58,812 nt of DNA from an uncultured Planctomycetaceae bacterium (GCA_964652875.1 CAZZEF010000002.1:1-58812), one strand, 5' to 3'. Shown: positions 3,116 to 52,663, numbered from the stretch's first letter. Notes: generated from the sequence alone by a model not told the origin. Made by a program: numbers and translations.

Positions 3116-3116
3116 T

Positions 3117-5328: not shown

Positions 5329-5358
5329 TAAAACCTCACTTGATTATGATGTATTTTT

Positions 5359-6063: not shown

Positions 6064-6185
6064 CTTATTGATTTTATTTTAATGTTTTTAAAAACAGAAC
6101 AATCATTTTTTCAGGATTTATTTTTTACATTTACATAGCTATATTTCATCTTAAAATGGCTGTAAAACATAATACCGATAAAATT

Positions 6186-6617: not shown

Positions 6618-6638
6618 TTTTGCTCCTTTTTATTATGC

Positions 6639-7076: not shown

Positions 7077-7178
7077 TTTCTAAATCATTTCTATTGAAGA
7101 TCTCGTTGTTATTTTTACGAAGAAGAATATCAAATAATAATCCCAATTCAAGTTTTAAAATATTTTTACAAAAATTAT

Positions 7179-7285
7179 TTATACTGCTTTTATTTTAAAT
7201 TTTCCATTATTTCCGTCGATTGACTGCGTAAATCGGCGGTTCTTTAGACGTTATTACAGAAAATTCATGATGGAAACGATATACA
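7179..7285 (+). repeat. PAL element copy A (left arm), with a degenerate inverted right arm around 7474-7531
   Basis: Sequence is TTTATACTGCTTTTATTTTAAATTTTCCATTATTTCCGTCGATTGACTGCGTAAATCGGCGGTTCTTTAGACGTTATTACAGAAAATTCATGATGG. The hairpin is CCGTCGATT / AATCGGCGG with loop GACTGCGTA. Confidence 0.85.
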
Positions 7286-7544
7286 ACAGTCACACCAATG
7301 AATTTTAAATAATTATTTTCATAAAAACTTGTTTTCATACTACAAGTGGTTAAATTACACCTTTGTAAATAATTATCGCGGACTTTTTGTTCCGAATTTG
7401 AGCTGTACGCAACATCATAATTATATAGAGAATACATGCGGCAAATTCGAAAACGGCAACAGACTCTGTTGTTTGACGGATTCAACACTGAATCAAAAGC
7501 CGGAATAAAAAGTCCTGACCATTTTTATATAAGGAGAAACATTT

Positions 7545-8234
7545 ATGAATCTGTTCGACAGGTTTGAAACGAAAGAAAAAATTTTAACAGCTTTAGAAGA
7601 ATGTATTCAACAGGACATTAACGGAAATTATTTTCTTTCCAATCCGGACGACAAAGGCAAAACATCCGAATTCACTCAACTGCATCAAGAGTATCAAAAA
7701 CTTTTAGAAGAAAATGAAAAACTTAAGAAAGAAACTGCCTCTGGGCATGCCGCAATTGAAGAGCTTGCGAGTTTAAATCCGAGTGAACTCCAAAAGAAAA
7801 TGAAAAATTACACAAAAGAGAAATCGGAACTTCTCGCCAACAATGAACACCTGACCAATGAGCTTAAAAAGCTTAATGACGAACTCGAATATTATCACCA
7901 AAAAGAAAGAGAAGATCAAATTCGCACCATTCTTCATGAAGAAGCGGAAAAGCTTGGCATTCGCCCGGAGGCAATACGCGATGTTGATCGATTGATTTAT
8001 TGGGTTTATGAAAATGAAGACGGTTCGCTCACAACTGAAGACGGATTGACTATTTCGGAACTTCTCAAAAATGAGCTTGCACTTTCTCCGCATTGGCTTC
8101 CAGACTCACTAGCCGGGGGCAGTCACTCCATCCAACCTTTTCTTTCTTCCATGCCACAAAATATTCAATTCGAAAACGCAAAAAAAAATCAGGACATTAC
8201 CGGAATGATTCTGAATGCTCCCATTATTGACTAA
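7545..8234 (+). CDS. Putative capsid scaffolding protein
   Basis: 229-aa acidic coiled-coil protein (EYQKLLEENEKLKKE, LTNELKKLNDELEYYHQKE) immediately upstream of the major capsid gene. AGGAG SD precedes the ATG. Confidence 0.55.
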   Translation: MNLFDRFETKEKILTALEECIQQDINGNYFLSNPDDKGKTSEFTQLHQEYQKLLEENEKLKKETASGHAAIEELASLNPSELQKKMKNYTKEKSELLANNEHLTNELKKLNDELEYYHQKEREDQIRTILHEEAEKLGIRPEAIRDVDRLIYWVYENEDGSLTTEDGLTISELLKNELALSPHWLPDSLAGGSHSIQPFLSSMPQNIQFENAKKNQDITGMILNAPIID

Positions 8235-8246
8235 AAAGGAGAATTA

Positions 8247-9389: not shown

Positions 9390-9460
9390 GTATTTCAATA
9401 TTAATTTCATTCGATAAGACTCATCATATAAACTAATAAACAGAGGTCCAATCGAATGAA

Positions 9461-9495
9461 GCGCCGGAAAACAATATTATTTCCGGCGTTTTTTG
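9461..9495 (+). terminator. Rho-independent terminator after the capsid gene
   Basis: CGCCGGAAA-ACAATATTA-TTTCCGGCG followed by TTTTTT. Confidence 0.75.
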
Positions 9496-9689
9496 TCAGC
9501 TTTTTATTATGTAAACAATAACCGCAATATAGATATATTGTGATTTTGTCAATGATAACTTAATTCATACTCTCCTCTTTTAAAATTTTTCATGTCTGCG
9601 GACTTTATGTATTAATCTTACCGACAGATAAAAGAAAAATTTTAAGCGGAAACAATAGAATCAGTATTATAAAAAAGGAGTTCATCACT

Positions 9690-9920
9690 ATGAAAATTCT
9701 TTCCATCGAAAAAGGTTATAATCATAATATAATTAACTACGAGTATCACAATGAGATCTGTCAATTTATTTTTGCTCGAGATCAAGACGTTGAAACCGCT
9801 ATAAAAAATTTATCAGCACTATATGAAAAAAAAGATATGGAGGATCTCTCGAAAAAAGAAAAATCAAGAATAATTACAAAGAAATTATCAAAGAAAAATC
9901 AGGAGAATAAAACATTATGA
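9690..9920 (+). CDS. Small phage protein, unknown
   Basis: 76-aa ORF with AAGGAG SD and an ATGA overlap with the next gene. Confidence 0.5.
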   Translation: MKILSIEKGYNHNIINYEYHNEICQFIFARDQDVETAIKNLSALYEKKDMEDLSKKEKSRIITKKLSKKNQENKTL

Positions 9921-10369
9921 TATGGCTGACTCTTAACGAAGCTGTTCTGTATTTTTCCAACAGACCGTTTGCTTCTTCCTGGATTGAGGCATCAAACGAT
10001 TTGAAAACCAAATGTTTGAGCTGGTCTGAAATTATTTTGGACAGCGCCTTCACTTGGTCGCACAACGCTTTTAATATTGATATTTCCGGCAATATTATTG
10101 CGCATGAAAAAATAAAAAATGCGGTTTGCGAACAAGCTCTTTGGTTATTAGAAAAGAATAATTCAGCCGAAATTCCTTTTTTTCAAAAAGAGTTGGAGTC
10201 CGTCTCACTCAACGGCATTAGTGTAAAATTTTCTCAAAATATTAATTCTTTGACACAGATCGATAAACTTCTTTCTTTTAGCGCTGTTTTATTGATCGGA
10301 AATCTTGGGATTCTAAAAAAAGAAAACAGAGAAAACGGAACGATTTTATCAAGTATGCTTGAACGGTAA
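9917..10369 (+). CDS. Putative head-tail adaptor/connector (DnaT_2 / gp6-like pattern)
   Basis: 150-aa ORF. The N-terminus LTLNEAVLYFSNRPFASSWIEASNDLKTKCLSWSEIILD resembles the head-completion adaptor family. It lies downstream of the capsid gene. Confidence 0.45.
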   Translation: MIWLTLNEAVLYFSNRPFASSWIEASNDLKTKCLSWSEIILDSAFTWSHNAFNIDISGNIIAHEKIKNAVCEQALWLLEKNNSAEIPFFQKELESVSLNGISVKFSQNINSLTQIDKLLSFSAVLLIGNLGILKKENRENGTILSSMLER

Positions 10370-10760
10370 GGAGAATATTTTGATTACTCAAACCTGTCTT
10401 ACACATTTTGTTCAAAGAAAAATAAAGGATTTGTTTCATTTGCTTGGTTCAGAAATCACTATTACTGGTGTTTGGCCGAAAGAAGAGAGTCAATCGTTAT
10501 ACGATTACAAAGAAACTGGTCATCTGGTTTTATTTATTCCAACATCTTTTATTCCAGATATAATCGAAAGCAATGACCGATTACATTCCGCGACAGGTGA
10601 AAACATTTCCGGACTTGTCTTTTACGAAAACAACTTTAATATTCCCACTCCCTATTGCGGGGCGGTAATTTTCAACGATAATATTTATCAGCTTACCAGT
10701 CTTGAAAAAGAGTATTGGGGAACAGAACTTGTAATTTTAAAATTTAAAGGAACCCGATAA
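10359..10760 (+). CDS. Phage head-block protein, unknown (TTG start; alternative TTG at 10380 behind AAGGAG)
   Basis: 133-aa ORF and the last gene of the plus-strand head block. Confidence 0.45.
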   Translation: MNGKENILITQTCLTHFVQRKIKDLFHLLGSEITITGVWPKEESQSLYDYKETGHLVLFIPTSFIPDIIESNDRLHSATGENISGLVFYENNFNIPTPYCGAVIFNDNIYQLTSLEKEYWGTELVILKFKGTR

Positions 10761-11233
10761 TTTTCCCTTTTATTATCCATCGTTGAGATCAAATTCTATT
10801 TAAGCATCAATTTCAACGTTTTATAAATTTATACATGAAATCAACTTCAGAAATTTTTCCAACTTCAAGAATTATTCTTCGGCTAAACATTACTTTTTTC
10901 TCTAACTCCAAAGAACCGTTCTCTAACGAAATCAATGATCGAAAATATGAAAAATAAAAATCGACAGTATAAAATACTAGTTTAAAATCTTTATGAGAAC
11001 CTTTTTTTGACATTTATATAAAGAGTCCCGTTTTAAATACGTTCAGCCCAGAATGGCATAATTTTAAAACGGGACCTTAATTAAACTTACTTTTATACCG
11101 GTTATTTTTTATTGATCTTTAATCGAAAAAACAGTCTGTATAAATATCGTTTAAAACTTTTCAATAGTGATTGGATGTATTTTATAAAACATATGAATTA
11201 ACGAAAAAATGACTTTTCGCAATGCGCCAAATC

Positions 11234-11809
11234 TTATTTCTTTTCGGAATTCTTAGCGGCGGCTTTTTGATCCGCTTTAGCTTTGGCTTTTGCCGCTCGA
11301 TCCGCTTTAACTTTGACTTGCCGCTGATCCGCTTTTTTCTTCTGTTCCGCTTTTAACATTGACAAATTATCATCATATTCTTTTTTCTGCTCCGGTGTCA
11401 ATGTCGCAATTATTTTATCTTTACATTCACGATCAAGATTCGCAAGACGAGCCCGAAGAGATGCGACAACTTCGTTGTATTCCGCTTGAATTTTAAATAT
11501 CGCTTCTTTTTGCGGATCTGTCAATTTTTGTTTAAATTTATAAAACTGAAAAGGAAGACGTTTTTGAAATTTTTTAGTCTTAATTTTTTCAAGACAAACC
11601 TTACCGGAAGCTCTATTCATCATTGATTTGAGTTCTTCTTTTTCAGCCATCAATAAAGATGTCGGAGTAGCAGGCGCGGCAGGTGCCGGAGCAGCCTGAG
11701 CCGGTGCAGGCTTGACTGGGACAGGCTTGGCAGTATTTTGTGCCATTGAAAATGATCCAAAAACAAAAACAGAAAGAATGACAGCAAATGGCATAATAAA
11801 ATTCTTCAT
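11234..11809 (-). CDS. Periplasmic LTXXQ-motif (Spy/CpxP-like) protein
   Basis: Signal peptide, Pro/Ala linker, two LTxxQ motifs (LTDPQKEAI, LTPEQKKEY) and a Lys/Ala-rich tail. Confidence 0.6.
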   Translation of the reverse strand: MKNFIMPFAVILSVFVFGSFSMAQNTAKPVPVKPAPAQAAPAPAAPATPTSLLMAEKEELKSMMNRASGKVCLEKIKTKKFQKRLPFQFYKFKQKLTDPQKEAIFKIQAEYNEVVASLRARLANLDRECKDKIIATLTPEQKKEYDDNLSMLKAEQKKKADQRQVKVKADRAAKAKAKADQKAAAKNSEKK

Positions 11810-19276: not shown

Positions 19277-20362
19277 TTATTTTTCTTTGAATTTTAATCG
19301 GAAAAAGTCCGCACGGGCAACACTTTCTTCTTCTCCTTCAAGAACACGACCAAGCCGGCGTTTCAAATGAGCGGATTGCGATAAAAGCATGATCTCATTA
19401 AGATCTTCAAAAGCGAAATTTTTGATCAAATTGAGATGAATTCCCAACCGAACGCTTGAAAGATACTCCATCGATTCCTCCAGCGTCATTGTGTGCGCAG
19501 TTTGCAAAATAGCCATTGCCCGACAACATTTATCCAAAAGTCGGGAATGATAATTCTCAAGCAAATGCTCTCGCGCCTTGCGTTCGTATTCTACTGTACG
19601 CGGAACCACTTCGCAAAGCTGAGCAATCAGTTCCTCTTCACAGCGTCCAAGGGTCGTCTGATTACTTATTTGAAAAAATTCCCCCAACGCGTTTGAACCT
19701 TCTCCGTAAATTCCCCGAACAGCCAAATTAATTTTCTGAAGACCGCGAAAAACACGTTCCGCTTCGCCCGTTTCAACAAGTCCCGGAATATGCAACATGA
19801 CGCTAACACGAATACCTGTTCCGACATTGGATGGACATGCCGTCAAATAGCCGAGTTTTTGATCAAACGCAAAAGAAAGTTCGTTCTCTAATTGGTTATC
19901 AAGTTCATCTGTCTGAGCCCAAAGCTGCCGCAATTCGAACCCGCTGCACATACGTTGAATGCGAAGATGGTCTTCTTCGTTCACCATAATGCAGAATTCT
20001 TCTTTTTTATCGATTATCGCAGCGCACGGATACTCCGCCTCGACAAGATCCTTACTGATTAACTGCCGTTCCAAAAGGACCTGACGATCAAGCCGCGAAA
20101 CATCATCAAAATCAAGATAAAAAATCGACGATGCGTCAAAAATTTTATCGGAAGCCGCTTTGACTTTTTCAAGAATAGCCCGCTGTTCCGCTTCTGTTGC
20201 CCTGTTCACAAACGGAAACTCATCTATATTTCGGGCCAATCTGATCCTGCTGGAAACAACAACGTCTGAATCCGATCCGATGCCTCGCAGCCAGGCACTC
20301 TGCTGATTAAACAATTCGTCCAATTTCACAATATTCTCTGTTCTATTCTGTTTTTTTGGCAA
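19277..20362 (-). CDS. mcsB: Protein arginine kinase McsB (ATP:guanido phosphotransferase family)
   Basis: Contains RIRLARNI, MVNEEDHLRIQ, LTACPSNVGTGIRVSVMLHIPGL and a C-terminal helical domain. Confidence 0.85.
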   Translation of the reverse strand: MPKKQNRTENIVKLDELFNQQSAWLRGIGSDSDVVVSSRIRLARNIDEFPFVNRATEAEQRAILEKVKAASDKIFDASSIFYLDFDDVSRLDRQVLLERQLISKDLVEAEYPCAAIIDKKEEFCIMVNEEDHLRIQRMCSGFELRQLWAQTDELDNQLENELSFAFDQKLGYLTACPSNVGTGIRVSVMLHIPGLVETGEAERVFRGLQKINLAVRGIYGEGSNALGEFFQISNQTTLGRCEEELIAQLCEVVPRTVEYERKAREHLLENYHSRLLDKCCRAMAILQTAHTMTLEESMEYLSSVRLGIHLNLIKNFAFEDLNEIMLLSQSAHLKRRLGRVLEGEEESVARADFFRLKFKEK

Positions 20363-20661: not shown

Positions 20662-20734
20662 CGCCTCGACAAGGACTCGAACCTTGGACCCAGCGGTTAA
20701 CAGCCGCTTGCTCTACCAACTGAGCTATCAAGGC
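20662..20734 (-). tRNA. tRNA-Asn (GTT)
   Basis: Hand-folded. The acceptor is GCCTTGA/TCGAGGC, the anticodon loop CTGTTAA and the T-arm CAAGG-TTCGAGT-CCTTG. No CCA is encoded. Confidence 0.85.
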
Positions 20735-20848
20735 GTCCGGATAAGAATAATTTCTTACCGATTAATTTTTATTCTATATGCTTTTTTATTTCTTTCAAGA
20801 GGCACCTAAAAAATTTTTTAGATCTTGAACAAAAACATATAAAATAAA

Positions 20849-20934
20849 TACCGAAGAGAGGACTCGAACCTCCACCTCCTGTAACAGAGACTAGGACCTG
20901 AACCTAGCGCGTCTACCAATTCCGCCACTTCGGC
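20849..20934 (-). tRNA. tRNA-Leu (CAG), long variable arm
   Basis: Sequence is GCCGAAGTGGCGGAATTGGTAGACGCGCTAGGTTCAGGTCCTAG..., with anticodon loop TTCAGGT and T-arm GGAGGTTCGAGTCCTC. Confidence 0.85.
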
Positions 20935-20960
20935 AACATTTTCAATTTTTTATTGGAAAA

Positions 20961-21031
20961 CAACCCGGCAAGGATTCGAACCTTGACTGAGGGAACCAAA
21001 ATCCCTTGTGCTGCCATTACACAACCGGGTT
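20961..21031 (-). tRNA. tRNA-Gln (TTG)
   Basis: The acceptor is AACCCGG/CCGGGTT, the anticodon stem-loop AGGGA-TTTTGGT-TCCCT and the T-arm CAAGG-TTCGAAT-CCTTG. Confidence 0.8.
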
Positions 21032-27787: not shown

Positions 27788-27884
27788 ATGATGTCTGTTT
27801 TTCCGATTTTAAAGTCGAAAAATCAGCCGATCCGCAAAATCAACCTGCCGGAAAAACAGAATATTAAAAAACGCTCCGTATAAA
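27788..27884 (-). repeat. PAL element copy L (diverged)
   Basis: Plus strand reads ...GTCGAAAAATCAGCCGATCCGCAAAATCAACCTGCCGGAAAAACAGAATATTAAAAAACGCTCCGTATAAAA. It aligns with the minus-orientation copy at 38942-39047. Confidence 0.55.
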
Positions 27885-28407
27885 ATTTTCTGACAAGTTT
27901 ACAAAAATAACCGCAAATTTTTTGCGTCTAAAGACTTGATTTTATCAATCGTTCAAAAGATCTTTAAGAATTTTTGTAACTTTTCTGTCAGAGACTTGCG
28001 ACGAAACATTTTTTTTGGTAAAATACAGAAAATAAAGAAAACATCGCTTTGTTTCCCTGTTCTTTATTTCGGAATAACAATAATCCGTAAAGCATACCCG
28101 CCCTAAACAAAGGATCTGATCTGAATTAACATATAATGAAAACAAACGGTTTATACCGCAATTCAAACCGTTTTCAGAACAGATTCTCAACTTTAGATCT
28201 TTCAGTCGGTTTTACAATTGAAAAAACACTGTTGTTATTCCCGCCGAAATATTCGAATTTTATTAAATTTTCGGTCTTGGTATTCCCCCCAACATGCAGA
28301 AACCTGACAACATAAGTTCGGCGTATTCCCCCAAAAACAAGCTTGACCAACCCGCAACAAATACAACGGAAACTATTCGTTATCATTCATCTGTCGAGAG
28401 GTTTTTT

Positions 28408-33291: not shown

Positions 33292-33304
33292 TTATTTCGT
33301 TATT

Positions 33305-33407
33305 CCGGTTTCATGATGAATTTCATGTCCTGTCATCAAAAGAACCGCCGCCGATTCGCAGAGGCAGCCGGTAAAATCACGGAAAATTAAAAAGAGGACA
33401 GTATAAA
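33305..33407 (-). repeat. PAL element copy F (diverged, hairpin eroded)
   Basis: The reverse complement reads TTTATACTGTCCTCTTTTTAATTTTCCGTGATTTTACCGGCTGCCTCTGCGAATCGGCGGCGGTTCTTTTGATGACAGGACATGAAATTCATCATGAAACCGG. Confidence 0.65.
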
Positions 33408-33502
33408 GTCAGTCGGTTCAGTTATCCCGACGATACGAACAAAGTATTTTTCATACGTTTTACGGTTCTTGTGAATTTCAACAACAGGAAAGGATTTTCG
33501 AG

Positions 33503-38691: not shown

Positions 38692-38711
38692 CCGTTGAAA
38701 ATTGCAGAACA

Positions 38712-38785
38712 TTTATTCTGATCCTTTTAATTTTACCGCCCTTTGTCTGCGTGAATCGACGGTTTTTAACATTAATACGGGACCA
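38712..38785 (+). repeat. PAL element copy H (left arm of an inverted pair)
   Basis: Sequence is TTTATTCTGATCCTTTTAATTTTACCGCCCTTTGTCTGCGTGAATCGACGGTTTTTAACATTAATACGGG. Confidence 0.7.
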
Positions 38786-38941
38786 TTTATGCGATGGGGC
38801 AACTTTATAATTGTCTGTTGGACAATCACAGCAAAGAATAAAACTGGAACGCAGATGTCTGATCAACATACCTGCAAAACAGATATCCCCGCCGGTTTTG
38901 ATACCTTGGATCAACTTGTAATTCAAAGGGTTACAAGTCAC

Positions 38942-39047
38942 TATACCGATTTCATCATGAATTTTCTGTTATAACGTCAAAAGAACAGCCGATTCACGCA
39001 ATCAATCGGCAGAGAAGACGGAAAATTTAAAAGAAATGCAGTATAAA
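38942..39047 (-). repeat. PAL element copy B (right arm of the inverted pair)
   Basis: The reverse complement reads TTTATACTGCATTTCTTTTAAATTTTCCGTCTTCTCTGCCGATTGATTGCGTGAATCGGCTGTTCTTTTGACGTTATAACAGAAAATTCATGATGAAATCGGTATA. Confidence 0.85.
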
Positions 39048-39515
39048 TCAGGATAATATGTTACCCGTATTATAAATTCTCTGCTTAATGCGGGAAAGCG
39101 CCGCGCAAACCGATTTTATACTTGACCGAAACGGAAAATAGTTCATGCCGTTTCGGTCTTTTCGTTCCATGTTAAAAACTATCCGTCTCTTGACCGCAAT
39201 ATCAGCACCCCTTGTCGTTTTCTCTATTCTTGTTGTTTTGACTTATCGGCACCACTATTTAATTTGTTATTCCTTCCCTATTTTTCCATTTTGTTATTTT
39301 TTCTTAATTTCACTTCTCTGTTTATTCGGAATATCCGTCATAAAAAACATGAAAAAATTTAAAAATATTTTAAATTTACCTTTCTGTTATCTGGATGATC
39401 TTTGACGATACGATTATTATTTAGGATTGTAAGGGGATTTTGTTTTCTGACAGAAATATTATGAAATGTCTATTATATCGGTTGGGCATTATGACTTCCG
39501 ATCACGAAAGCGGAT

Positions 39516-41694: not shown

Positions 41695-41796
41695 AATTAA
41701 CTGACTCCGAACATATAAATTTAAAGTCTGTCCTGAAAAATTGAACCCCGTTTCAGACCGTTCCTTTTCTCTTTCGAACTAATTTCAGGATGGACT

Positions 41797-41875
41797 TTTA
41801 TACAGATCTCTTTTAATTTTTCGTCATTTCTGCCGATTAACTGCGTAAATCGGAGGTTCGTTTAATACTTAAAAT
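41797..41875 (+). repeat. PAL element copy C
   Basis: Sequence is TTTATACAGATCTCTTTTAATTTTTCGTCATTTCTGCCGATTAACTGCGTAAATCGGAGGTTCGTTTAATACTT. Confidence 0.75.
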
Positions 41876-42209
41876 CTAATATTAAAATCGACATAATTGA
41901 CTTTTCCCCCATTGGGTATTACAATAGATCCAGCTCAGTCGGTTGAATTTAAATTTCATTTTCCAACGACAAATAATTACCGGTTTCGCAAAATTAACTG
42001 ATCAAAAAGAAGTAATACCGGCTGCATAATAAACCGTTCCGTCCGGTTTCGCGAAATATTTTCGAAAAATCTTTCGCAGACAAACAAGGTTCAGAAGTAA
42101 TTACGAAAAAATCTTTCTGTTTGCGTTCTCAATCAAGTTTTGGACAAAGAGATTGTCCTGATTCCGAATCAAATACGGACAGAACCGCATTATCTGTCAG
42201 ACCGGACGA

Positions 42210-42310
42210 TTATATACTGACCGTATTGTTAATTTCCGATTGTTCCGCCGTTTGACGTCATGAATCGGCTGTTTCTGACATTGAAAAGGGAAATTCATAA
42301 TGAAAACTTG
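42210..42310 (+). repeat. PAL element copy K
   Basis: Sequence is TTATATACTGACCGTATTGTTAATTTCCGATTGTTCCGCCGTTTGACGTCATGAATCGGCTGTTTCTGACATTGAAAAGGGAAATTCATAATGAAAAC. Confidence 0.75.
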
Positions 42311-42371
42311 ATAACATCTTCAAAACTAATTATTTGCGATTTTGATCAAATATCAATTCAGGAAAAAAGAA

Positions 42372-45300
42372 ATGAAAAAATTATTGCTGATTGCTTTGAC
42401 GCTTTTTTGTTCTATTTGTCAGGCTCAAACGTTGCAGGAAGGATTTACAACTCCCCCCGCGAGCGCCAAACCGGAAGTTTGGTGGCATTGGACAAGCGAC
42501 GATATCAACAAAGAAGGAATGACCGCCGATCTCGAATCGATGAAAAAAGTCGGGATCGACCGCGCCTATATTTTCTTCGTCAGCGGACCGGGCAAGGGGA
42601 TCGGATTGACTCCTGAACGGCTTGAATTCTATCGTTATGCGGCGGCGGAAGCCAAACGACTCGGGCTGACTCTCGGAATGCATAACTGTCCCGGATGGTC
42701 ATCCAGCGGAGGTCCCTGGATCACTCCCGAACAGTCGATGAAAGGACTCGTCTGTTCGGAAACTTTTTTGACCGGTGGACAAAAGATCAATATCAAACTG
42801 CCGCAGCCTCCAACACGGCTTGATTTCTATCGCGATGTTGCTGTTCTGGCTGTTCCGGTAAAAGACGGTCCGTTCGAACCGAAAATCGTTCTTAACGGAA
42901 AAGAAATCACCAAGCCCCAATTTCGGATCCCTGTCGCAGGCGAAGGAACCCAAGCCGATCTTGAATGCCGCTTCGATAAAAAAATTTCCGCCAACTCAAT
43001 TGGAATCGTTTTTTCGACATCCTCGTTAAACGTTGGCGGTAAAATCGACGCCGTCGACGAATACGGAAAGACACGTGAAGTTGGTCAGTTCCGGCTTCGA
43101 AAATTCGGCTGGCTCAATCACAGCGACCCGAACACCTGGCAAATTCTTGATCTCGCCGAAAAGGACGGATCTCCCGTTAAAGCGAAAACGTTCCGCCTTC
43201 ATTTTACCGGTCAGACCGGCAAGGAATTTCCCGTCCCGGTCAGCAAAATTCGTTTTTTCAATAATTCAATGATCGCCGATATCGACCAGAAGAACTCTTC
43301 AACAGACCGATTCGGCTATCAGGAACCAGTTCGACCTGATGAAAAAGGGATCAACCCGAACGATGTGATCGATCTTTCCGACAAGATGCGGAATGACGGA
43401 TCGCTTGACTGGAACGCTCCGATCGGGAATTATGTCGTTTTGCGAATCGGATGCACCGCGCTGGGTAAAATGTGCGCACCGGCTCATAAAAACATGCGGG
43501 GACTCGAATGCGACAAGCTGGCCAAATTCGGAATTGAAGAGCATTGGAAAAACATGATGGGTCCGGTTCTTAATCAGGTCAATCCTTACGGAACACTCCG
43601 CGTCTGTCTTATCGATAGTTACGAGATGGGCGGACAAAACTGGACATTCGAACTTGAAAATATTTTCAAAAACAAACGCGGATATTCGATGCGAAAATAT
43701 TTTCCTGCACTGTTCGGATACATGATCGGATCGGGCGCCGATTCCGCCGCATTTCTTTATGATTTCCAGCGAACCGTTTCCGACTGTTTTGTCGAAAATT
43801 ATTATGACCGTTTTTATGAACTTTGCAACGCCAATAATATTATGTCGAGTTGCGAATCGTATAACGGCCCGTTTGACGATTTACAGTGCGCGCATAAAAT
43901 ACCGCTCGCCGTAACTGAATTTTGGGTTGGCGGTAATGGATTGGGATCCCGTTACTCCGCGTCCGCGGCCCGTATTCACGGTCAGTCCGTCAACGGAGCC
44001 GAATCATTCACCGCGGAACCCGGTCCCGGCCGATGGCAGCAGGATCCCCGCCAGCTCAAGCGATACGGCGACATGGCTTGGATCGAAGGTGTCAACCTCC
44101 TGATCCTTCACAGTTACGTCCAGCAGCCTTACGGACAGGCCAAACCGGGCATGACGCTCATGCAATACGGAACTCATTTTGGCCGCAACAATACCTGGTG
44201 GTCAGAATCAAAGGGCTGGATGGATTATATGGCGCGCGGTCAGTTCCTTCTGCAAAGCGGTCACAGCACTTCGGAAATTCTCATACTGGCCGGTGAAAGC
44301 CGTCCGAACGCCTGCGGTATTCGAAAGGAGTTAACCAATGCCGGTTACGATTTCGATTACTGCGATGCCGAAACCATTCATAAACGCCTCTCCTTTAAAA
44401 ACGGTAAAATTCATATCGACGGAGCGCTGGATTATGATGTCTTTTTCCTTGGATCAGAACGGCATCCATCGCTGGCAACCCTGCGCAAAGTCAAAGATCT
44501 GCTCGATCAGGGCGCGTTTGTCGCCGGTCAAAAACCGCTTGGTTCACCCAGTTTGGCTGATAAAAAAGATCTTACGGAATACAATCATCTTGTTCAAACA
44601 ATTTGGATCGATAAAAAATATCGAACCTTCCTTGAAACGAATGATGCACTTACGGCCTTGAAACAGGCCAAAATAGCCCCTGATTTCCAAAGCGTTAATC
44701 CGAATTTCATTACGATCTCCCGCGAAACACAACAAGAGCGGATCTATTTTATTATGAACACATCGGACGACGACTCGTTTGGTGTCTGCTCTTTCCGTGT
44801 TACAGGAATGACTCCTGAATTTTGGGATCCAATGACCGGAAAAATCTCGCCCGCTGCTTTTTGGAAACAGACCGAAAACAGACGAACGGAACTCCCGGTC
44901 AAACTGGCTCCGAACGGATCGACTTTTGTTGTTTTTTCAAAAAAACAGATCGAAGATCATCCCGTTGCTCTGATCGAAGGAAAAATCAAACCAGACAAAA
45001 ATAACAGTCTGACAATACTTGAAGCCAAATATCGGGTGCGCGGCGATAATACCGGAGGTGTTGATGTTTTGGATCGGGTAGTTCAGGCGATGGACAAGGA
45101 AGGCTTGAAACTTTTAGTCGAAAACAATACACTCGGCCGCAGGGACCCTTACCCGGATCAGTTCAAAGAACTTCTGCTGCATTATCGAATCAACGGAAAA
45201 GAAAAGATCGGCATTTATCCGGAACATACGAGTATTTATCTCCCTCTGATTCCGGAAGACGCTTTTATCGCCAATTATTTTACCGAGAGCAACAGACCGT

Positions 45301-45941
45301 CTGCGGAATTTACCCGCCCCGGAACCTTTGCTGTTAAACTCGCCTCGGGCAAAACTCTTTCTGCCTCCTGTTCTCAAACGATAAACGTACTTTCCCTGAA
45401 TGACAATTGGACCGTTGAATTCACCAAAGATCTCGGCGCGCCGGAGGGCAAAATTCCGTTCGGCAAACTGGTTTCCTGGTCAGATCGACCGGAATCCGGA
45501 ATCAAATACTTCTCCGGCAGTGCCGTTTACCGTAAAACCGTCTCTCTTACTCCGGACGAGTTCAAAACCAAAAAACATTTCTTACTTGATCTTGGGGAAG
45601 TAAAAAATCTGGCACGGGTCATTGTCAACGGAAAGGATCTCGGTATTCTTTGGACACCGCCTTTCTCAATGGACATTACCTCCGCGCTCAAGCCGGGCAA
45701 TAATCTTCTGGAGATCAAGGTGGTCAATCTTTGGGTCAATCGATTGATCGGCGATGAATTTCACCCAACCGCCAATCAAACCGAAAAGCCCGATTGGGTT
45801 GTCAAAGGACTTCCGAATTCCGGCGACGGTCGTTATACCTGGTCCTCCTGGAAGGGATGGAACAAAGACGACAAACCGCTTTCGTCCGGTCTTCTTGGAC
45901 CGGTTTCCCTCGAATCCCGCCCGGTACTTCCATTAAAGTAA
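42372..45941 (+). CDS. Large secreted glycoside-hydrolase-like protein (GH106-type rhamnosidase-like architecture, tentative)
   Basis: Start at MKKLLLIALTLFCSICQA. The N-terminus has PPASAKPEVWWHWTSDDINKEGMTADLESMKKVGI. The C-terminus has the sugar-binding-type motif FSGSAVYRKTV...VNGKDLG...PFSMDIT...GNNLLEIKVVNLWVNRL. Confidence 0.6.
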   Translation: MKKLLLIALTLFCSICQAQTLQEGFTTPPASAKPEVWWHWTSDDINKEGMTADLESMKKVGIDRAYIFFVSGPGKGIGLTPERLEFYRYAAAEAKRLGLTLGMHNCPGWSSSGGPWITPEQSMKGLVCSETFLTGGQKINIKLPQPPTRLDFYRDVAVLAVPVKDGPFEPKIVLNGKEITKPQFRIPVAGEGTQADLECRFDKKISANSIGIVFSTSSLNVGGKIDAVDEYGKTREVGQFRLRKFGWLNHSDPNTWQILDLAEKDGSPVKAKTFRLHFTGQTGKEFPVPVSKIRFFNNSMIADIDQKNSSTDRFGYQEPVRPDEKGINPNDVIDLSDKMRNDGSLDWNAPIGNYVVLRIGCTALGKMCAPAHKNMRGLECDKLAKFGIEEHWKNMMGPVLNQVNPYGTLRVCLIDSYEMGGQNWTFELENIFKNKRGYSMRKYFPALFGYMIGSGADSAAFLYDFQRTVSDCFVENYYDRFYELCNANNIMSSCESYNGPFDDLQCAHKIPLAVTEFWVGGNGLGSRYSASAARIHGQSVNGAESFTAEPGPGRWQQDPRQLKRYGDMAWIEGVNLLILHSYVQQPYGQAKPGMTLMQYGTHFGRNNTWWSESKGWMDYMARGQFLLQSGHSTSEILILAGESRPNACGIRKELTNAGYDFDYCDAETIHKRLSFKNGKIHIDGALDYDVFFLGSERHPSLATLRKVKDLLDQGAFVAGQKPLGSPSLADKKDLTEYNHLVQTIWIDKKYRTFLETNDALTALKQAKIAPDFQSVNPNFITISRETQQERIYFIMNTSDDDSFGVCSFRVTGMTPEFWDPMTGKISPAAFWKQTENRRTELPVKLAPNGSTFVVFSKKQIEDHPVALIEGKIKPDKNNSLTILEAKYRVRGDNTGGVDVLDRVVQAMDKEGLKLLVENNTLGRRDPYPDQFKELLLHYRINGKEKIGIYPEHTSIYLPLIPEDAFIANYFTESNRPSAEFTRPGTFAVKLASGKTLSASCSQTINVLSLNDNWTVEFTKDLGAPEGKIPFGKLVSWSDRPESGIKYFSGSAVYRKTVSLTPDEFKTKKHFLLDLGEVKNLARVIVNGKDLGILWTPPFSMDITSALKPGNNLLEIKVVNLWVNRLIGDEFHPTANQTEKPDWVVKGLPNSGDGRYTWSSWKGWNKDDKPLSSGLLGPVSLESRPVLPLK

Positions 45942-45973
45942 TTTTCAAAAACTGCTTGTTCTGTTCTGATATC

Positions 45974-46016
45974 GCGCCGGATTTCTGTCATAAACAGTCA
46001 CAACGGCGCTTTTCGT
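45974..46016 (+). terminator. Possible terminator after the hydrolase gene
   Basis: GCGCCG...(24-nt loop with inner CTGT/ACAG)...CGGCGC followed by TTTTCGTTATTTT. Confidence 0.4.
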
Positions 46017-46017
46017 T

Positions 46018-46124
46018 ATTTTATACTGCACTCCTTTTTAATTTTCCGTTATTTCCGCCGATTGACTGCGTGAATCGGCTGTTCTTTGTACGTTATAATG
46101 AAAAATTCAACAAGGAACCAGTAT
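46018..46124 (+). repeat. PAL element copy D (best preserved)
   Basis: Sequence is TTTTATACTGCACTCCTTTTTAATTTTCCGTTATTTCCGCCGATTGACTGCGTGAATCGGCTGTTCTTTGTACGTTATAATGAAAAATTCAACAAGGAACCAGTAT. Positions 46040-46124 are identical to 48886-48970. Confidence 0.9.
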
Positions 46125-46150
46125 CGAACAGAATCTTAACTGAATGGAGA

Positions 46151-46245
46151 TAAATGGAATTGACCATGTACGTTAAGTCACACCCCCAGGTGAATATACT
46201 TCCCAAATGGGGATTATGAATGGAATTAACCATGTACGTTAAGTC
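46151..46245. repeat. Two-unit direct repeat: 29-nt units, 37-nt spacer
   Basis: TAAATGGAATTGACCATGTACGTTAAGTC lies at 46151-46179 and TGAATGGAATTAACCATGTACGTTAAGTC at 46217-46245. A partial TGAATGGAGA lies at 46141. Confidence 0.8.
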
Positions 46246-46320
46246 GCTCTTCTTCAGAATATCGAAATTGAGTCTCCTGTAAATTTTCAGTAAATATGGT
46301 TCATTCTGTATTTCGGATAA

Positions 46321-46346
46321 GAAAAATGGGACACAGAATTCTGTCC
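46321..46346 (-). terminator. Terminator of the LRR gene
   Basis: The minus strand reads GGACAGAATTCTGTGTCC followed by CATTTTTC, 70 nt past the stop at 46415. Confidence 0.5.
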
Positions 46347-46414
46347 TGTTAAAATTAAATGTTATGTTTCATCATCGGGAAAGTCCGTCGCTGTTCCGGA
46401 ATCGATAAACGCTG

Positions 46415-47374
46415 TTATTTTGGAGGAATTTTCATCATAAACGGAATTTCATTTTCTTTTGCGTATTCTTGCGCAACGGAATTGGGCGCACCGGTAATAA
46501 TAAATTCACCGCAACAAAGGAACGCGTTATCTCCAATTTTTGTTACACCTTTTGGAAGATCAACAGATCTTAGGGAATCGCAGGACTCGAAGGTTCCTTC
46601 TTCAATTTCCTGAACACCTTCGGGAATTTCAACTGACTTTAAAGACTTGCAATCATTGAATGCGTGTTCCCCTATCTTCGTTATCCCTTGAGGAAATTCT
46701 ATCGATTTTAAACCGGTACAACCAGAGAACGCACAGGCACCAATCTCCTTTACATTTTCGGGAATGACTATTTTTCCTTCGGCGGACGGCCAGGCAACAA
46801 GAATTTTTCCGTCCCGACTTAACAGCATGCCGTCTTTTTCCGTATAAGACAAATTTTCTTCGGAAATAATTATTTCTGTTAAGGACGCGCAATACGCGAA
46901 CGCATCGTTATCAATTTTCTCAACGCTGGAGGGAATAACCACCGACCTCAAAGAATAACAGTATTTAAAAGCATCTTTTTGAATCATCGTCACCCCTTGA
47001 GGAATAATTATCGATTTTAAGGCGCAGCCGCAAAACACTCCCCGTCCTATTTTGGTCATAGCTTTGGGGATCTCTATTGACGACAAAGACTCGCAGCCGC
47101 CAAATGCGTTTTCTCCCATTGTCATTACCCCTTGAGGAATAGTCACCGATGTTAAAGACGAACAATATCTGAACGCGTTTCTTCCAATTGTTTTTACTTC
47201 TTCGGGAATTACCGCCGACGTTAGGGATTCACAGTTCATAAAAACCTTCGGACCGATCGACGTTACTGTTTTTTCGTCAATTTCCGCCGGAATTACGAGA
47301 TTATTCCCGGTGCCGATGTACCCTGTAATTTTGATGCCGTTGTCTTGTTCTTTCCATTCATATTCTGAATTCAT
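46415..47374 (-). CDS. BspA-type leucine-rich-repeat protein (LRR_5)
   Basis: About 23-aa periodic units of the form F..C.SL.SV.IP.GV..IG..AF..C, repeated about 10 times. No signal peptide is present. Confidence 0.85.
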   Translation of the reverse strand: MNSEYEWKEQDNGIKITGYIGTGNNLVIPAEIDEKTVTSIGPKVFMNCESLTSAVIPEEVKTIGRNAFRYCSSLTSVTIPQGVMTMGENAFGGCESLSSIEIPKAMTKIGRGVFCGCALKSIIIPQGVTMIQKDAFKYCYSLRSVVIPSSVEKIDNDAFAYCASLTEIIISEENLSYTEKDGMLLSRDGKILVAWPSAEGKIVIPENVKEIGACAFSGCTGLKSIEFPQGITKIGEHAFNDCKSLKSVEIPEGVQEIEEGTFESCDSLRSVDLPKGVTKIGDNAFLCCGEFIITGAPNSVAQEYAKENEIPFMMKIPPK

Positions 47375-47624
47375 TGATACTTTCTCTTTTTTTCTAATTT
47401 CATTTTATCCTAGTGCAACAATTATTTTTATTTAAGTCGCATTATGTTTTCGACTAATTGAATCAACGGGCGTTTTTAGAATTTTCGAACTTATGCTTAT
47501 TTCCAATTACAAGTATGTCTCAACCGCCGATTTACATTTTCAACGCGCAATACAAAATATTGACAGGAACGTTTTTTACATTGAAAGCGTTTTTTCATTT
47601 TACATCAATTTCGAACGTTCTCCA

Positions 47625-48221
47625 TTACTCTTCAATTTCCAACCGCCTTTCAAAATCATCGTCAGTCCAGCAGCCGGAAAGATCTCCCGAGTAAGCAACG
47701 TCCGCAAAACCGATTCCAAGAACTTTGTCCCGACAAGTAATTACACCTATTCCATGCTCTGCCTCTAATTCTGTTTCGAACGAATATCCGACCAGAGCAA
47801 TACCGTCCCGGACCACATCGGTCAAGGTGATACCTGAAAAATAAAAGATGCGGCCAAGTCCTTTGACAGAACTCAATTCCGGAAAATCGCCATCTTCTCC
47901 AAAATCATATAGATCCTCAAGTACTTTCATTTCTAATTTACGGTATTTTAGATAGAATGCATGCAGATCTTGAAGGATCACATCTTTGATCTTTTCTTCA
48001 TTTGTCTTTGTGTATTCCCAAGCTGCCCTTTGAGCAGTCAGCAGCTCATTGGGGACGGCATTGTTTTCCGTATGCCCCAAATCCACTATCAAACCGGAGA
48101 ACGGATTATCTTCGTCATATTCTTCCTGTTCTTGAATAAAATCCTGCCATGCGGGAAATTTCCATATAATCCATGCTCCGTTATCATCCTGCGTAAAGTC
48201 CGAAATCGATTCTGATGACAT
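47625..48221 (-). CDS. Acidic immunity-like protein (DUF6985-like pattern, tentative)
   Basis: 198 aa and highly acidic. The C-terminal ELEAEHGIGVITCRDKVLGIGFADVAY resembles the EHG-containing motif of that family as I recall it. Confidence 0.5.
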   Translation of the reverse strand: MSSESISDFTQDDNGAWIIWKFPAWQDFIQEQEEYDEDNPFSGLIVDLGHTENNAVPNELLTAQRAAWEYTKTNEEKIKDVILQDLHAFYLKYRKLEMKVLEDLYDFGEDGDFPELSSVKGLGRIFYFSGITLTDVVRDGIALVGYSFETELEAEHGIGVITCRDKVLGIGFADVAYSGDLSGCWTDDDFERRLEIEE

Positions 48222-48396
48222 TGCAAAAACTCTTTCTTCATAAGTAATATTATTTGACGAATGCTATTTCACCTCAATCAATCACTTCTATTTTTACAAA
48301 AAAAGAAGTGACCGTAAAAAAGGAGAACAGAAGTAAAATTTTATCGGTGTATACACAATATACACCGATAGTATTATGATTTTTTCATTCTAACCC

Positions 48397-48462
48397 TAAA
48401 AAACAACCGTTTTTCGCAATCACTCGGAGGAATTTAATTAATTTAAAAGGAGTACGGTATAA
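48397..48462 (-). repeat. PAL element copy G (diverged)
   Basis: The reverse complement reads TTATACCGTACTCCTTTTAAATTAATTAAATTCCTCCGAGTGATTGCGAAAAACGGTTGTTTTTT. Confidence 0.55.
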
Positions 48463-48864
48463 CATCTATGACCTTACAAACAAGTCCACTTCTCAATATT
48501 TTATAGCCAACATTGCAGAACGATCGATCAATACAAATTCAAGGATTTCTTTTTTATTCCGTCGGATCTCCGACCCTTGAAGAAAATCGGTCTTAACTCT
48601 TTTTTATTTCCTTCCATTCGGTTTTCTGTCCTTTTCCCGTTTGCAGTGATTAAATATATTTTCCATAATTACCCGACAAAGTCAAGTACTGTTTGATTGA
48701 CGCCTGATATAAAAGGATACCCAATCGTTTTTTGAAACCTAACCAGCACTATTGGTCCGCCCCTATTACCCAATTAATTCGAAACGGATTCCGTTCTATA
48801 TTGAGTTTAGTAAAACTGGCTCCTGGCAAAACGATTTCTATTAATAGCGTTTTTTCAAGACTAC

Positions 48865-48970
48865 TTTTATACTGCTCTTATTTTAAATTTTCCGTTATTT
48901 CCGCCGATTGACTGCGTGAATCGGCTGTTCTTTGTACGTTATAATGAAAAATTCAACAAGGAACCAGTAT
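48865..48970 (+). repeat. PAL element copy E
   Basis: TTTTATACTGCTCTTATTTTAAATTTTCCGTTATTTCCGCCGATTGACTGCGTGAATCGGCTG... Its last 85 nt are identical to copy D. Confidence 0.9.
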
Positions 48971-49019
48971 AACATTATTTTTTCCTGTTTCTTATACTTA
49001 CGAACGACTCTTTTCAATC

Positions 49020-50021
49020 TCAGTCCGGTATAACGGACATGCGGGCAATTTGAATCATCATTAAAATGAAGCCAAGAAAAAATATTCCAATAGCGGGCTG
49101 GAGAATAAAAAGCGAGAAAAGCGGCAAACAAAACAATAGTAAAATATAACAAAATATTTTTATTTCGACAGGATATTCTTTTTTTAATTCATTCTTCTCT
49201 TTTTTCTTTCTTTGATAAAAACAGGCATTCCCGCCCATTGCGGTAAGTCCTCCGTAAAATGCGGTTGCAGCGCAGATAAACGCCGCGGCTTTTTCTTCTC
49301 TTAAAAACAATCCAATAACCAAGAGATACCAAAGAGTCAAGGTGAACATAAAAAACATAAAAGCTTTTTCTCGTTTTTCATTTTTGTGCGATCCTGTCTT
49401 TCCGTTACTGGAGAGAAACCTCTGCTTCTCTCTGTTTTTTCGTTCTATGTATCGCAAAAGCGTTATCGTAAAATTCACCAAGGCAACTATCAGAAACAGA
49501 ATACCAACGCTGCCGAAATACAGATAAACCTCAAGAGCTTTTTCCGGCCCAAGTTGGGTTGTTCCGACAAGAGTCCCCTTGATTCGAGCATAACGGGGAC
49601 AGCTTTTATAGATCTCCATCTGTACTTTGTCCCCAGCATTAAAAAATGAGGCAGCAGTTCCCTTACAAGTAAAAGAATATTTTTTCCCGTTGAACTGATA
49701 CTCCCCTTCATACCCCTTAGGGAAAAAACTTTTTGTAATCCGAAATGTTTTCCGAACATTTCCTGTCGGTTCCGATTCGATACACCAGCCGTTTTGCCGA
49801 GAAGATAATGAAATAACCGCGCAATCGGGCCGCAATGCGACAAAGGCCAAAATATTCCAAGCCAGAATAAAAATGACCCCTCCAAACGCGGACACCGGGT
49901 GTCTGAACATTCCATTCGATTGGACAACATTTTTCAAACCCGATAATCTGATCTTCCGAGACATTTTCTTTCTCCAATTTCGAGAAGGATCTGTATTTTC
50001 GAACCTTTCAATTATTCCCAA
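49020..50021 (-). CDS. Multi-TM membrane protein with DUF3592-like central beta region
   Basis: 333 aa. TM segments flank EGEYQFNGKKYSFTCKGTAASFFNAGDKVQMEIYKSCPRYARI. Confidence 0.6.
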   Translation of the reverse strand: MGIIERFENTDPSRNWRKKMSRKIRLSGLKNVVQSNGMFRHPVSAFGGVIFILAWNILAFVALRPDCAVISLSSRQNGWCIESEPTGNVRKTFRITKSFFPKGYEGEYQFNGKKYSFTCKGTAASFFNAGDKVQMEIYKSCPRYARIKGTLVGTTQLGPEKALEVYLYFGSVGILFLIVALVNFTITLLRYIERKNREKQRFLSSNGKTGSHKNEKREKAFMFFMFTLTLWYLLVIGLFLREEKAAAFICAATAFYGGLTAMGGNACFYQRKKKEKNELKKEYPVEIKIFCYILLLFCLPLFSLFILQPAIGIFFLGFILMMIQIARMSVIPD

Positions 50022-52312: not shown

Positions 52313-52663
52313 CGTTCCCCGGCCGCTTTCTGTTACACAGATCGTTATTTTATATTGCTCTCATTTGAAATTTCGCGATTTACACCGGACGGTATTAGAG
52401 CCCGGTGCTGACAACGGGACAATAAAAATTTTAAGCAAACACAAGAATATCAGGCAAAATTTCAACAGAATCAATACCGTTTGAATTCTTAAAATTTTGA
52501 TCAAGTCGCTTACAGTAAACAATAGTACCCGCCTCTTTTATTGTATCGTCTCAATCACTTCGTCAACCATCTGACTAAAAAAAATGCGGAAAAACAATTT
52601 CATTCTGACGTTCAAGTCTCAATGAATTTATTTTTCCGCAATATCCGATTCGGATCGATAATT

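Follow-up and report, generated by a model that had tools for sequence, protein, structure and literature searches.

A new family of small palindromic repeats, with a near-identical pair that flanks genes for a leucine-rich-repeat protein and a DUF6985 protein

The 58.8-kb stretch of DNA that we analyzed (the window) contains ten clear copies of an AT-rich imperfect palindrome of about 108 nt. Two of these copies, which we will call D (46019..46126) and E (48865..48972), are nearly identical. They are in direct orientation, and they enclose the genes for a leucine-rich-repeat (LRR) protein and an acidic protein of the family DUF6985. On balance, we favor the view that this pair is the youngest in a family of non-coding repeats that is specific to the lineage and similar to MITEs or to ERIC, and that the two copies flank resident genes. 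The chromosome that hosts the family is probably from the Planctomycetota. The repeats are a previously undescribed family of a known kind and do not represent a new mechanism.

The palindromic repeat family

All ten copies are intergenic. They occur on both strands and in both orientations relative to the genes. Their GC content is 28–42%, versus 40% for the window. The element has no coding capacity: there is no start-to-stop open reading frame inside it, and because the copies differ by insertions and deletions, no reading frame is common to them. D and E are 93–96% identical to each other, while the next most similar pair is 84% identical and the other pairs are 42–81% identical. The majority of the copies are heavily decayed (42–67% identity). 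An earlier interpretation of this DNA (the sequence-only reading) had described the copies other than D and E as clearly diverged, and indeed none of them is over 84% identical to any other copy.

The copy at 7178..7285 (+ strand) lies between divergent genes in the part of the window that is prophage-like. The copy at 27796..27885 (– strand) is 3' of a PCMT gene, and the copy at 33302..33409 (– strand) is between the genes for a pterin-binding enzyme and a ParA-like protein. A copy that is 79–80% identical to D and E (38942..39048, – strand) is 3' of a POT transporter gene. Two copies are 5' of the gene for a GH106 α-L-rhamnosidase: the first is at 41796..41862 (+ strand), and the other, at 42209..42303 (+ strand), is directly 5' of the gene. 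D, whose GC content is 37%, is between the GH106 gene and the LRR gene, which are convergent. E is 50 nt past the stop codon of the gene for a 314-amino-acid membrane protein. The most diverged copy (52342..52435, + strand) is between the genes for an SBF-like transporter and FtsH; it is also present in L003, a contig from Logan. (The tenth copy lies between D and E and is described below.) The neighbors of the repeats include housekeeping genes (FtsH, the SBF transporter, PCMT, the pterin-binding enzyme, and the POT transporter), in either orientation. A 14-kb region (38.9–52.4 kb) contains seven of the ten copies, and this clustering is as compatible with local duplication or conversion as it is with transposition.

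The ends of the element (TTATACTG...CAGTATAA) are terminal inverted repeats. These are perfect in E, although the perfect portion at the termini is just 8 nt long. If gaps are allowed, the two arms align with each other for about 35 nt in D, in E, and in the copy at 38942, and the terminal helix is preserved in 78% of cells across the copies. The palindromic register is preserved in 74% of cells, versus 36–44% after sliding the register. At the center of the element is the hairpin GCCGATT-N9-AATCGGC, which is conserved in 9–10 of the 10 copies and is followed by GTTCTTT. The left end (TTTTATAC) is better conserved than the right end, and is conserved further out, which is atypical of a simple element with terminal inverted repeats. 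Target-site duplications are not informative here: TA is found on both sides of eight of the ten copies, but it is not separable from the conserved termini of the element, to which TA also belongs. In D, one side is TA and the other is TC.

As RNA, copy D is predicted to form an imperfect hairpin from end to end (–25.9 kcal/mol, z = –2.85; none of 200 shuffled sequences folded as well). The corresponding z score for DNA is –1.78. The end-to-end fold is present in the young copies and is lost in the decayed ones.

We considered that the elements might be functional sites that are not mobile, such as bidirectional terminators or attenuators, or binding sites for nucleoid or regulatory proteins. 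Such sites would have spread by duplication, and D and E would be so similar because they are under the strongest constraint. This would fit with the strictly intergenic locations, with the conserved central hairpin and the GTTCTTT that follows, and with the long stretches of the element that are conserved as sequence, beyond structure alone. Also, by our tally, six of eight associations with the 3' ends of genes are in the same relative orientation. But this bias is not significant, and there are also copies that are 5' of a gene or that lie between two divergent genes. The hairpin and its tail would be a weak terminator, and a consensus scan did not call a promoter or a terminator inside D or E. 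(D and E do contain TTGACT and TATAAT, but the spacing of 26 nt between them is too long for a promoter.) There is no covariation in the family above that in shuffled alignments, and RNAalifold retains only the central hairpin. A search of 45900–49100 against Rfam gave no matches at the gathering score or at E ≤ 1. Finally, most of the copies have decayed, as neutral relics would. We consider it quite unlikely that the elements are functional sites of this kind.

Copies D and E and their junctions

The sequence-only reading reported that 46040–46124 is identical to 48886–48970 and that these are members of one palindrome family in the same orientation. Both statements are correct: we found that the 85 nt are identical, that the perfect match does not extend by even one base on either side, and that both copies are on the + strand. 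If mismatches are tolerated, then the match begins at 46019 in D and 48865 in E and extends for 106 nt, with four mismatches (96% identity). The similarity stops exactly at 46124 and 48970 on the right and at 46019 and 48865 on the left, with none outside of the element on either side. The starts of the two copies are 2846 nt apart. Each of the two is an entire element, and neither is the edge of some larger duplicated block. We rejected segmental (tandem) duplication, as the similarity stops at the edges of the element and TRF reports nothing.

All four differences between D and E (at 46030, 46033, 46034, and 46039) are confined to 10 nt of the left arm. Given four differences, a perfect run of 85 nt is not expected by chance (P ~ 0.006). 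Furthermore, the left arm of E resembles those of the copies at 7178 (+ strand) and 38942 (– strand), while the left arm of D resembles those of the copies at 48376 and 33302 (both on the – strand). Since the differences are clustered and each left arm resembles different members of the family, the pair is a mosaic. This pattern suggests that the pair arose by gene conversion, or from two source copies that were slightly different, rather than by simple duplication.

The near-identity of D and E could be due to a recent origin from closely related source copies, to gene conversion that homogenized these neighbors, or to both. If conversion occurred, then the right limit of the tract would be the right edge of the element, where the homology stops, and its left limit would be inside the left arm. 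Because no other pair comes close to D and E in similarity, recency is a fair inference, and as the remaining pairs are 42–84% identical, we take D and E to be the youngest pair. Of the earlier proposal of a very recent duplication or insertion, the recency is reasonable, while the clustered mismatches and the mosaic arms argue against a simple duplication.

Might one of the copies, or the placement of the segment between them, be an error by the assembler? The organism is present in three public sequencing runs (SRR29243425, SRR8925725, and SRR8925722). In the Logan contigs, the right junction of D and both junctions of E are reproduced at 99.96–100% identity in two to three independent samples: the right junction of E is in contigs L003, L004, and L005, and its left junction is in L001 and L002. 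The exception is the left junction of D, which joins the GH106 flank to D's variant left arm and which is not in any independent contig. Logan contigs from SRR29243425 and SRR8925725 terminate exactly 30 nt inside the edges of the repeat (at 46095 and 48941), as would be expected of graphs with k = 31 at a true repeat. The Logan contigs all break at the repeat and thus do not show linkage across it; L005, which lacks one expected break, is described below. Another contig (L002) terminates at 48895, which suggests that another copy with E's left arm is present elsewhere. As three of the four junctions are reproduced in independent samples, an assembly artifact is unlikely. Also, since their left arms differ, D and E are not a single copy that was collapsed, and a repeat of 106 nt is probably shorter than single reads or than the largest k of common assemblers. 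Overall, an artifact seems extremely improbable.

The segment between D and E

The gene nearest to D encodes the LRR protein (46415..47374, – strand; 319 amino acids; pI 4.81), which was previously described as BspA-type. It matches LRR_5 (PF13306) with E = 7.6e-71, which confirms that description. The N-terminus of this protein does not have signal-peptide-like character. The GC content of the gene is 41.8%, and a terminator-like hairpin with a run of Ts (46329..46346, – strand) is located 70 nt past the stop codon.

The other gene (47625..48221, – strand) encodes a protein of 198 amino acids that matches DUF6985 (PF22481; 41.6 bits versus a cut-off of 24.5). We found 205 homologues, all distant, of which the closest is 50% identical and is on a 1.2-kb contig with no gene context. 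All 59 of the aligned relatives match PF22481 as well. In relatives, the DUF6985 domain is fused to ankyrin, pentapeptide, or UBA-like domains, but these fusions are not diagnostic. The AF2 model of the protein has a pLDDT of 90, and no fold in PDB matches it at E ≤ 0.001. The best matches were to uracil-DNA-glycosylase inhibitors; these had E ~ 1, which is not significant, and we rejected this candidate. We did not find any papers that mention the family. The sequence-only reading described this protein as acidic and immunity-like. It is acidic (pI 4.18), and this is the sole trait that supports the description; it has no match in PADLOC, NCBIfam, or PDB, and a Pfam scan of the neighboring genes did not find any toxin domains. 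The immunity label is thus a guess.

The tenth copy of the repeat (48376..48465, – strand) is 5' of the DUF6985 gene and is inverted relative to D and E. It was found with nhmmer using D as the single query (E = 2.9e-6). The sequence-only reading had placed a diverged inverted copy here, at 48397–48462. This copy is old and decayed: it is 64–65% identical to D and E, and the end-to-end fold is lost. Beside it is a perfect palindrome with a 13-bp stem (48341..48371), which is terminator-like on both strands. Just to the right of D are two 30-nt direct repeats (46150–46179 and 46216–46245, + strand), separated by 36 nt; these were previously reported as a 29-nt mini-repeat. The two units are 93% identical, and the repeat is found nowhere else in the window (none are expected by chance). 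It has no match in Rfam, has no unusual fold, and is not reported by TRF. We rejected a CRISPR-like array because the repeat has just two units and no notable fold, does not match a CRISPR-DR family in Rfam, and is not accompanied by cas genes.

Outside of the segment, the GH106 gene (42372..45941, + strand; PF17132, E = 4.8e-168) ends 78 nt before D; its closest relatives are 72–75% identical and do not share its neighbors. On the other side of E, the 314-amino-acid protein (49020..49964, – strand) is a basic membrane protein with about five hydrophobic segments. It is an orphan, with no Pfam family at E ≤ 0.01 and no homologues found. It had been thought to be DUF3592-like, but it has no match to PF12158, or to anything like DUF3592, even at E ≤ 10. 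No word-sharing homologues were found for either this protein or the DUF6985 protein.

We favor the explanation that two insertions came by happenstance to flank the LRR and DUF6985 genes, which would be resident accessory genes and not the cargo of a cassette. The elements may be mobilized in trans by an unseen transposase. Among the roughly 40 open reading frames in the window that we scanned, there were no integrases, transposases, tyrosine recombinases, or RAYT genes, and the window does not contain a full-length insertion sequence whose ends match the element.

Alternatively, the 2.85-kb unit comprising one element, the LRR gene, and the DUF6985 gene might itself be mobile or excisable, either by recombination of a circle with a resident copy or as a composite bounded by MITEs, and could be lost by recombination between D and E. 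MITE-bounded units include the MITE-flanked class 1 integrons of Acinetobacter and integron mobilization units. More generally, DNA between pairs of MITEs can be mobilized, and MITEs are recombination hotspots (PMC10969869). As in those units, two homologous copies surround a few kb of accessory-type genes. D and E are nearly identical and in direct orientation, and hybrid left arms are the expected remnant of a crossover between copies that differ slightly. The outer flanks of D and E are both TA, but a match of 2 nt carries no weight, and there is no informative duplication of the target. Unlike MITE-bounded units, the segment shows no sign of movement. Its composition is host-like (GC of 38.6% versus 40.3% for the window, GC3 of 0.40, and a tetranucleotide distance within the normal range). 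The exact LRR and DUF6985 proteins are found only on contigs that are collinear with the window, so they are seen in one context only; the DUF6985 protein has no close homologue, as the next best is 50% identical; and the segment has no blastn match to plasmids. The remaining hint of mobility is from SRR8925722, in which contig L005 continues past the branch point that is expected from the D junction. We do not take this as evidence for an empty site because this low-coverage sample also lacks neighboring genes, such as the SBF gene. We did not observe any presence/absence polymorphism, but none of the collections that we searched contains a close relative, and the more distant ones share no synteny with the window. 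We consider it unlikely that the segment is a mobile unit.

The sequence-only reading also proposed that the gene blocks and elements have a cassette-like arrangement, which recalls the gene cassettes of integrons, with the elements as the attC recombination sites. Like attC sites, the elements are imperfect palindromes, of comparable length, that lie 3' of minus-strand genes, and the ATTCAAC at one end of D and E fits the consensus RYYYAAC. But this motif is not conserved (most copies have ATTCATG or ATTCATC instead), and it is not paired with GTTRRRY at the opposite end, so there are no conserved core sites and no attC signature. The elements are in mixed orientations, including the inverted copy within the segment, and the genes that they flank include FtsH and other housekeeping genes. 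No integrase was found among the scanned open reading frames. An integron-like arrangement is contradicted by the data and has next to no chance of being correct. The host-like composition of the segment and the single context of its genes also speak against the cassette-like reading. A looser version is that the palindromes are sites for an undescribed system of cassette exchange in this planctomycete-like lineage, with a recombinase or transposase that is encoded elsewhere in the genome. D, E, and the segment would then be a freshly captured and excisable two-gene cassette, whose integration, whether site-specific or driven by homology, would have left the hybrid left arms behind as its footprint. 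We think this is very doubtful.

Comparison with known repeats, and implications

MITEs are non-coding elements of under 500 bp (typically 70–300 bp) with terminal inverted repeats of about 4–30 bp; they are dispersed, multi-copy, AT-rich, and intergenic, they form stem-loops when single-stranded or transcribed, they have target-site duplications at young copies, and they are mobilized in trans by related insertion sequences (PMC10969869, PMC3733652). The element in our window matches this description in its size and lack of coding capacity, its terminal inverted repeats, its AT-rich and intergenic copies, and its stable stem-loop. Bacterial MITEs of about 100–150 nt include RUP from Streptococcus pneumoniae (107 nt), Correia/NEMIS from Neisseria, and MITEAba12. 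Our element shares with these the small non-coding palindrome that folds as a hairpin over its whole length, as well as the coexistence of young and decayed subfamilies and the presence of local clusters. Unlike them, it has no similarity to any entry in Rfam or to plasmids or phages, and no cognate insertion sequence or transposase is known. It also differs in its short perfect terminal repeat, in the asymmetric conservation of its ends, and in its uncultured host, which is probably from the Planctomycetota.

ERIC, the enterobacterial repetitive intergenic consensus, is an imperfect palindrome of 127 nt, and copies of it are transcribed. Both ERIC and our element are long intergenic imperfect palindromes whose copies range from conserved to decayed, and for both, mobility is inferred and no transposase has been identified. 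The two are unrelated in sequence and are from different phyla. REP/BIME are also intergenic palindromic repeats, and are mobilized by RAYT transposases. Our element is about three times longer than these, neither tag (GTAG or CGTC) is adjacent to its central hairpin, and we saw no RAYT genes among the open reading frames that were scanned. REP/BIME palindromes are 20–40 nt and have such tags, and intergenic palindromic repeats have been reported in the PVC superphylum as well (PMC3733652).

We searched for the element in other DNA. Two IUPAC patterns had no matches in JGI metagenome contigs, one IUPAC pattern had no matches in viral contigs, and blastn against plasmids and phages gave no matches. 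Among GTDB representative genomes, a scan based on the GH106 protein gave a best match of 72% amino acid identity, in a Planctomycetia MAG (L006) that has other neighbors and lacks the element. Two more relatives of the GH106 protein (from L083 and L084; 73–75% amino acid identity) show no synteny with the window. The GTDB representatives, judging by a single gene, do not include the organism; it is likewise missing from the JGI metagenome contigs and from the collections of viral, plasmid, and phage sequences.

Recombination between short direct repeats, whether dependent on RecA or independent of it, is well established, and direct repeats of the length of D and E are a plausible substrate for deletion. 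The 2.85-kb segment might occasionally be deleted by recombination between D and E. The finding would carry greater weight only if the elements were shown to mediate the capture and loss of gene modules. If our preferred reading holds, namely that D and E are young members of a MITE-like or ERIC-like family that flank resident genes, then this is a new family of small palindromic repeats in a poorly sampled lineage, probably within the Planctomycetota. The repeat would flag sites where assemblies break and could be used as a marker for strain typing, and it might mark a hotspot for small deletions in which accessory genes are lost.

A young pair of direct repeats

The sequence-only reading held that one 85-nt sequence occurs twice without a difference, at 46040-46124 and 48886-48970. 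We confirmed this: the match cannot be extended by one base on either side and is far beyond chance. With mismatches allowed, the two repeats, D (46019-46126) and E (48865-48972), align over 106 nt at 96% identity from 46019 and 48865. Both are on the plus strand, with starts 2846 nt apart. Similarity ends abruptly on the right at 46124/48970, and there is no alignable sequence beyond these positions or, on the left, beyond 46019/48865.

Contigs from three other runs, retrieved from Logan by exact-protein look-up, are 99.96-100% identical to the window. One (from SRR29243425) covers 46095-48892, and two others both stop at 48941. Measured from the right edge of D or E, these ends, 46095 and 48941, each fall exactly 30 nt inside the repeat, where a k=31 graph, the kind used by Logan, should break on meeting a true repeat. 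Three of the four D/E junctions, all except the left junction of D, were reproduced independently in these other samples, which contradicts an assembly artefact as the source of the pair; we consider that explanation very improbable. The contigs are compatible with an integrated, a deleted or a circular arrangement. Another contig, L002, continues for exactly 30 nt past the first base of E, to 48895, which implies a further locus with an E-type left arm in that sample. In contig L005 (SRR8925722) the break predicted for 48941 is missing, but we give little weight to this hint of another arrangement because that run covers the organism poorly.

All four differences between D and E (46030, 46033, 46034, 46039) are confined to ten bases of the left arm. 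If four differences were placed randomly, an 85-nt perfect run would have a probability of about 0.006. The left arm of E (GCTCTTATTTTAAATTTT) is similar to those of the copies at 7178-7285(+) and 38942-39048(-), and the left arm of D (GCACTCCTTTTTAATTTT) is similar to those of the copies at 48376-48465(-) and 33302-33409(-). Judging by pairwise identity, D and E are clearly the youngest pair of the family (93-96%): the copies at 38942 and 7178 come next (84%; 77-81% against D and E), and the remaining pairs are at 42-67%. A recent pair in direct orientation, as first read, holds up, but D and E are no simple duplicates: the differences cluster and the left arms are mosaic. Gene conversion between neighboring copies could have produced this mosaic, with the right limit of the tract set by the end of homology; crossing over between two copies, or an origin from two parent copies that differed slightly, would have given the same result.

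A family of palindromic elements

Searching the 58.8-kb window with D and then with a profile gave 10 clear copies and a few weaker traces. Besides the six copies already located, these are at 27796-27885(-), 41796-41862(+), 42209-42303(+) and 52342-52435(+). (Seven of the 10 fall within 38.9-52.4 kb. Some copies form close pairs: a weak plus-strand copy at 38707-38782 faces the minus-strand copy at 38942-39048, within 38694-39068, and two plus-strand copies 415 nt apart lie upstream of the GH106 gene, within 41784-42324.) The copy at 7178 is in a prophage-like block (1-11800), which has many ORFs without a Pfam family, an SU10-type major capsid protein (8247-9389) and a DUF551 protein (2576-3115). 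Elsewhere, a minus-strand cluster of three tRNA genes (20662-21031) adjoins a McsB-like guanidino kinase gene (19277-20362).

The aligned consensus of about 108 nt reads TTTTATACTG ... TTTTAATTTTCCG ... GCCGATTGACTGCGTGAATCGGC ... GTTCTTT ... AAAATTCAT.ATGAAACCGGTATAA. Its termini are inverted repeats (TTATACTG/CAGTATAA), the arms align over about 35 nt, and young copies form a single long imperfect hairpin from end to end (for D, RNA z -2.85 and DNA z -1.78). When all copies are taken together, 74% of cells retain the palindromic register, versus 36-44% after sliding. The palindromy looks inherited rather than demonstrably selected, because covariation among the copies is not above that of shuffles and RNAalifold keeps the central hairpin alone.

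The element is AT-rich (28-42% GC), with no reading frame common to its copies and no Rfam match. All copies are intergenic, and they lie 3' of genes in both orientations, upstream of genes, or between divergent genes; the adjoining genes include those for FtsH, an SBF-type transporter, PCMT, a pterin-binding enzyme, a ParA-like ATPase, a POT transporter and the GH106 rhamnosidase. The elements might be functional sites, such as terminators or binding sites, but we consider this quite unlikely given the decay of most copies and a weak bias in orientation.

The element shares defining traits of bacterial MITEs and ERIC-like repeats (PMC10969869, PMC3733652): it is palindromic, AT-rich, intergenic and without a reading frame. 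As to two other defining traits of MITEs, TA flanks eight of the 10 copies but cannot be told apart from the conserved ends, and is hence uninformative as a target-site duplication, and no cognate transposase was found among about 40 window ORFs scanned against Pfam. It is a new, probably lineage-specific family within this known MITE/ERIC-like kind. A weak profile match (E 7.7e-4) beside a PIN-domain gene in a contig from SRR29243425 (L003, 342-403), about 750-810 nt past the right end of the window, suggests that the family extends beyond it.

The bracketed segment

Between D and E are a 319-aa BspA-type LRR protein (46415-47374(-); PF13306, E 7.6e-71), whose gene is followed by a terminator-like hairpin, and an acidic 198-aa DUF6985 protein (47625-48221(-); pI 4.18). 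Directly right of D, at 46150-46245, are two 30-nt direct repeats (93% identical, 36 nt between them), unique in the window, with no Rfam match, notable fold or cas genes. Upstream of the DUF6985 gene and adjoining the decayed, inverted copy at 48376-48465 is a perfect palindrome with a 13-bp stem (48341-48371, TTATCGGTGTATAC...GTATACACCGATA), terminator-like on both strands, which could also be an operator.

The DUF6985 protein had been called immunity-like. This is unproven: PADLOC and NCBIfam gave nothing, we found no literature on its function, and its AlphaFold model, a confident one (pLDDT 90, pTM 0.86), has no significant structural neighbor in the PDB. Its closest homolog is 50% identical. 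W152, E155, H156, G145, G159 and G171 are near-invariant, and some relatives carry ankyrin, pentapeptide or UBA-like domains as fusions. To the right of E, the 314-aa protein at 49020-49964(-) is an orphan membrane protein; its earlier label, DUF3592-like, is unsupported.

The main and more interesting alternative is that the segment and element form an inserted or excisable MITE-bounded module. Its support consists of the geometry of D and E and their hybrid left arms. However, the segment's composition is typical of the window (38.6% GC, GC3 0.40, ordinary tetranucleotide content), its two proteins were found in a single context, on contigs collinear with the window, and no transposase, integrase or resolvase appeared in the Pfam scan of about 40 window ORFs. 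We therefore think such a module unlikely, and the cassette framing of the sequence-only reading finds no support. (Positions 1-11800, unlike the segment, have deviant tetranucleotide content and GC down to 27%.) Integron-like cassettes are contradicted by the data and hardly credible.

Host lineage and a possible role in deletion

The window encodes a DUF1559 protein, and the nearest named relative of its GH106 protein (72% amino acid identity) is from a Planctomycetia MAG; other matches, from Phycisphaerae and Opitutales, are below 40%. Because of these proteins, we infer that the host is from Planctomycetota, in a poorly sampled lineage. The three closest GH106 loci have neither the element nor any neighbors in common with the window, and searches of JGI metagenome contigs, viral contigs, plasmids and phages did not find the element pattern. 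(Directly 3' of a 75%-identical GH106 gene, an ENA contig from ERZ15185696 has a tandem repeat of about 75 nt at 5930-6130, beginning GGGATGTAACATCCCCGGAAGG..., in which two complete units are followed by part of another; its sequence is unrelated to the element.)

We think it probable that D and E are two young, lineage-specific MITE/ERIC-like repeats, possibly homogenized by conversion, that flank resident genes. Short direct repeats are known to recombine. MITEs are described as hotspots of recombination (PMC10969869). It is therefore plausible that the D/E pair could serve as a substrate for occasional deletion of the segment.
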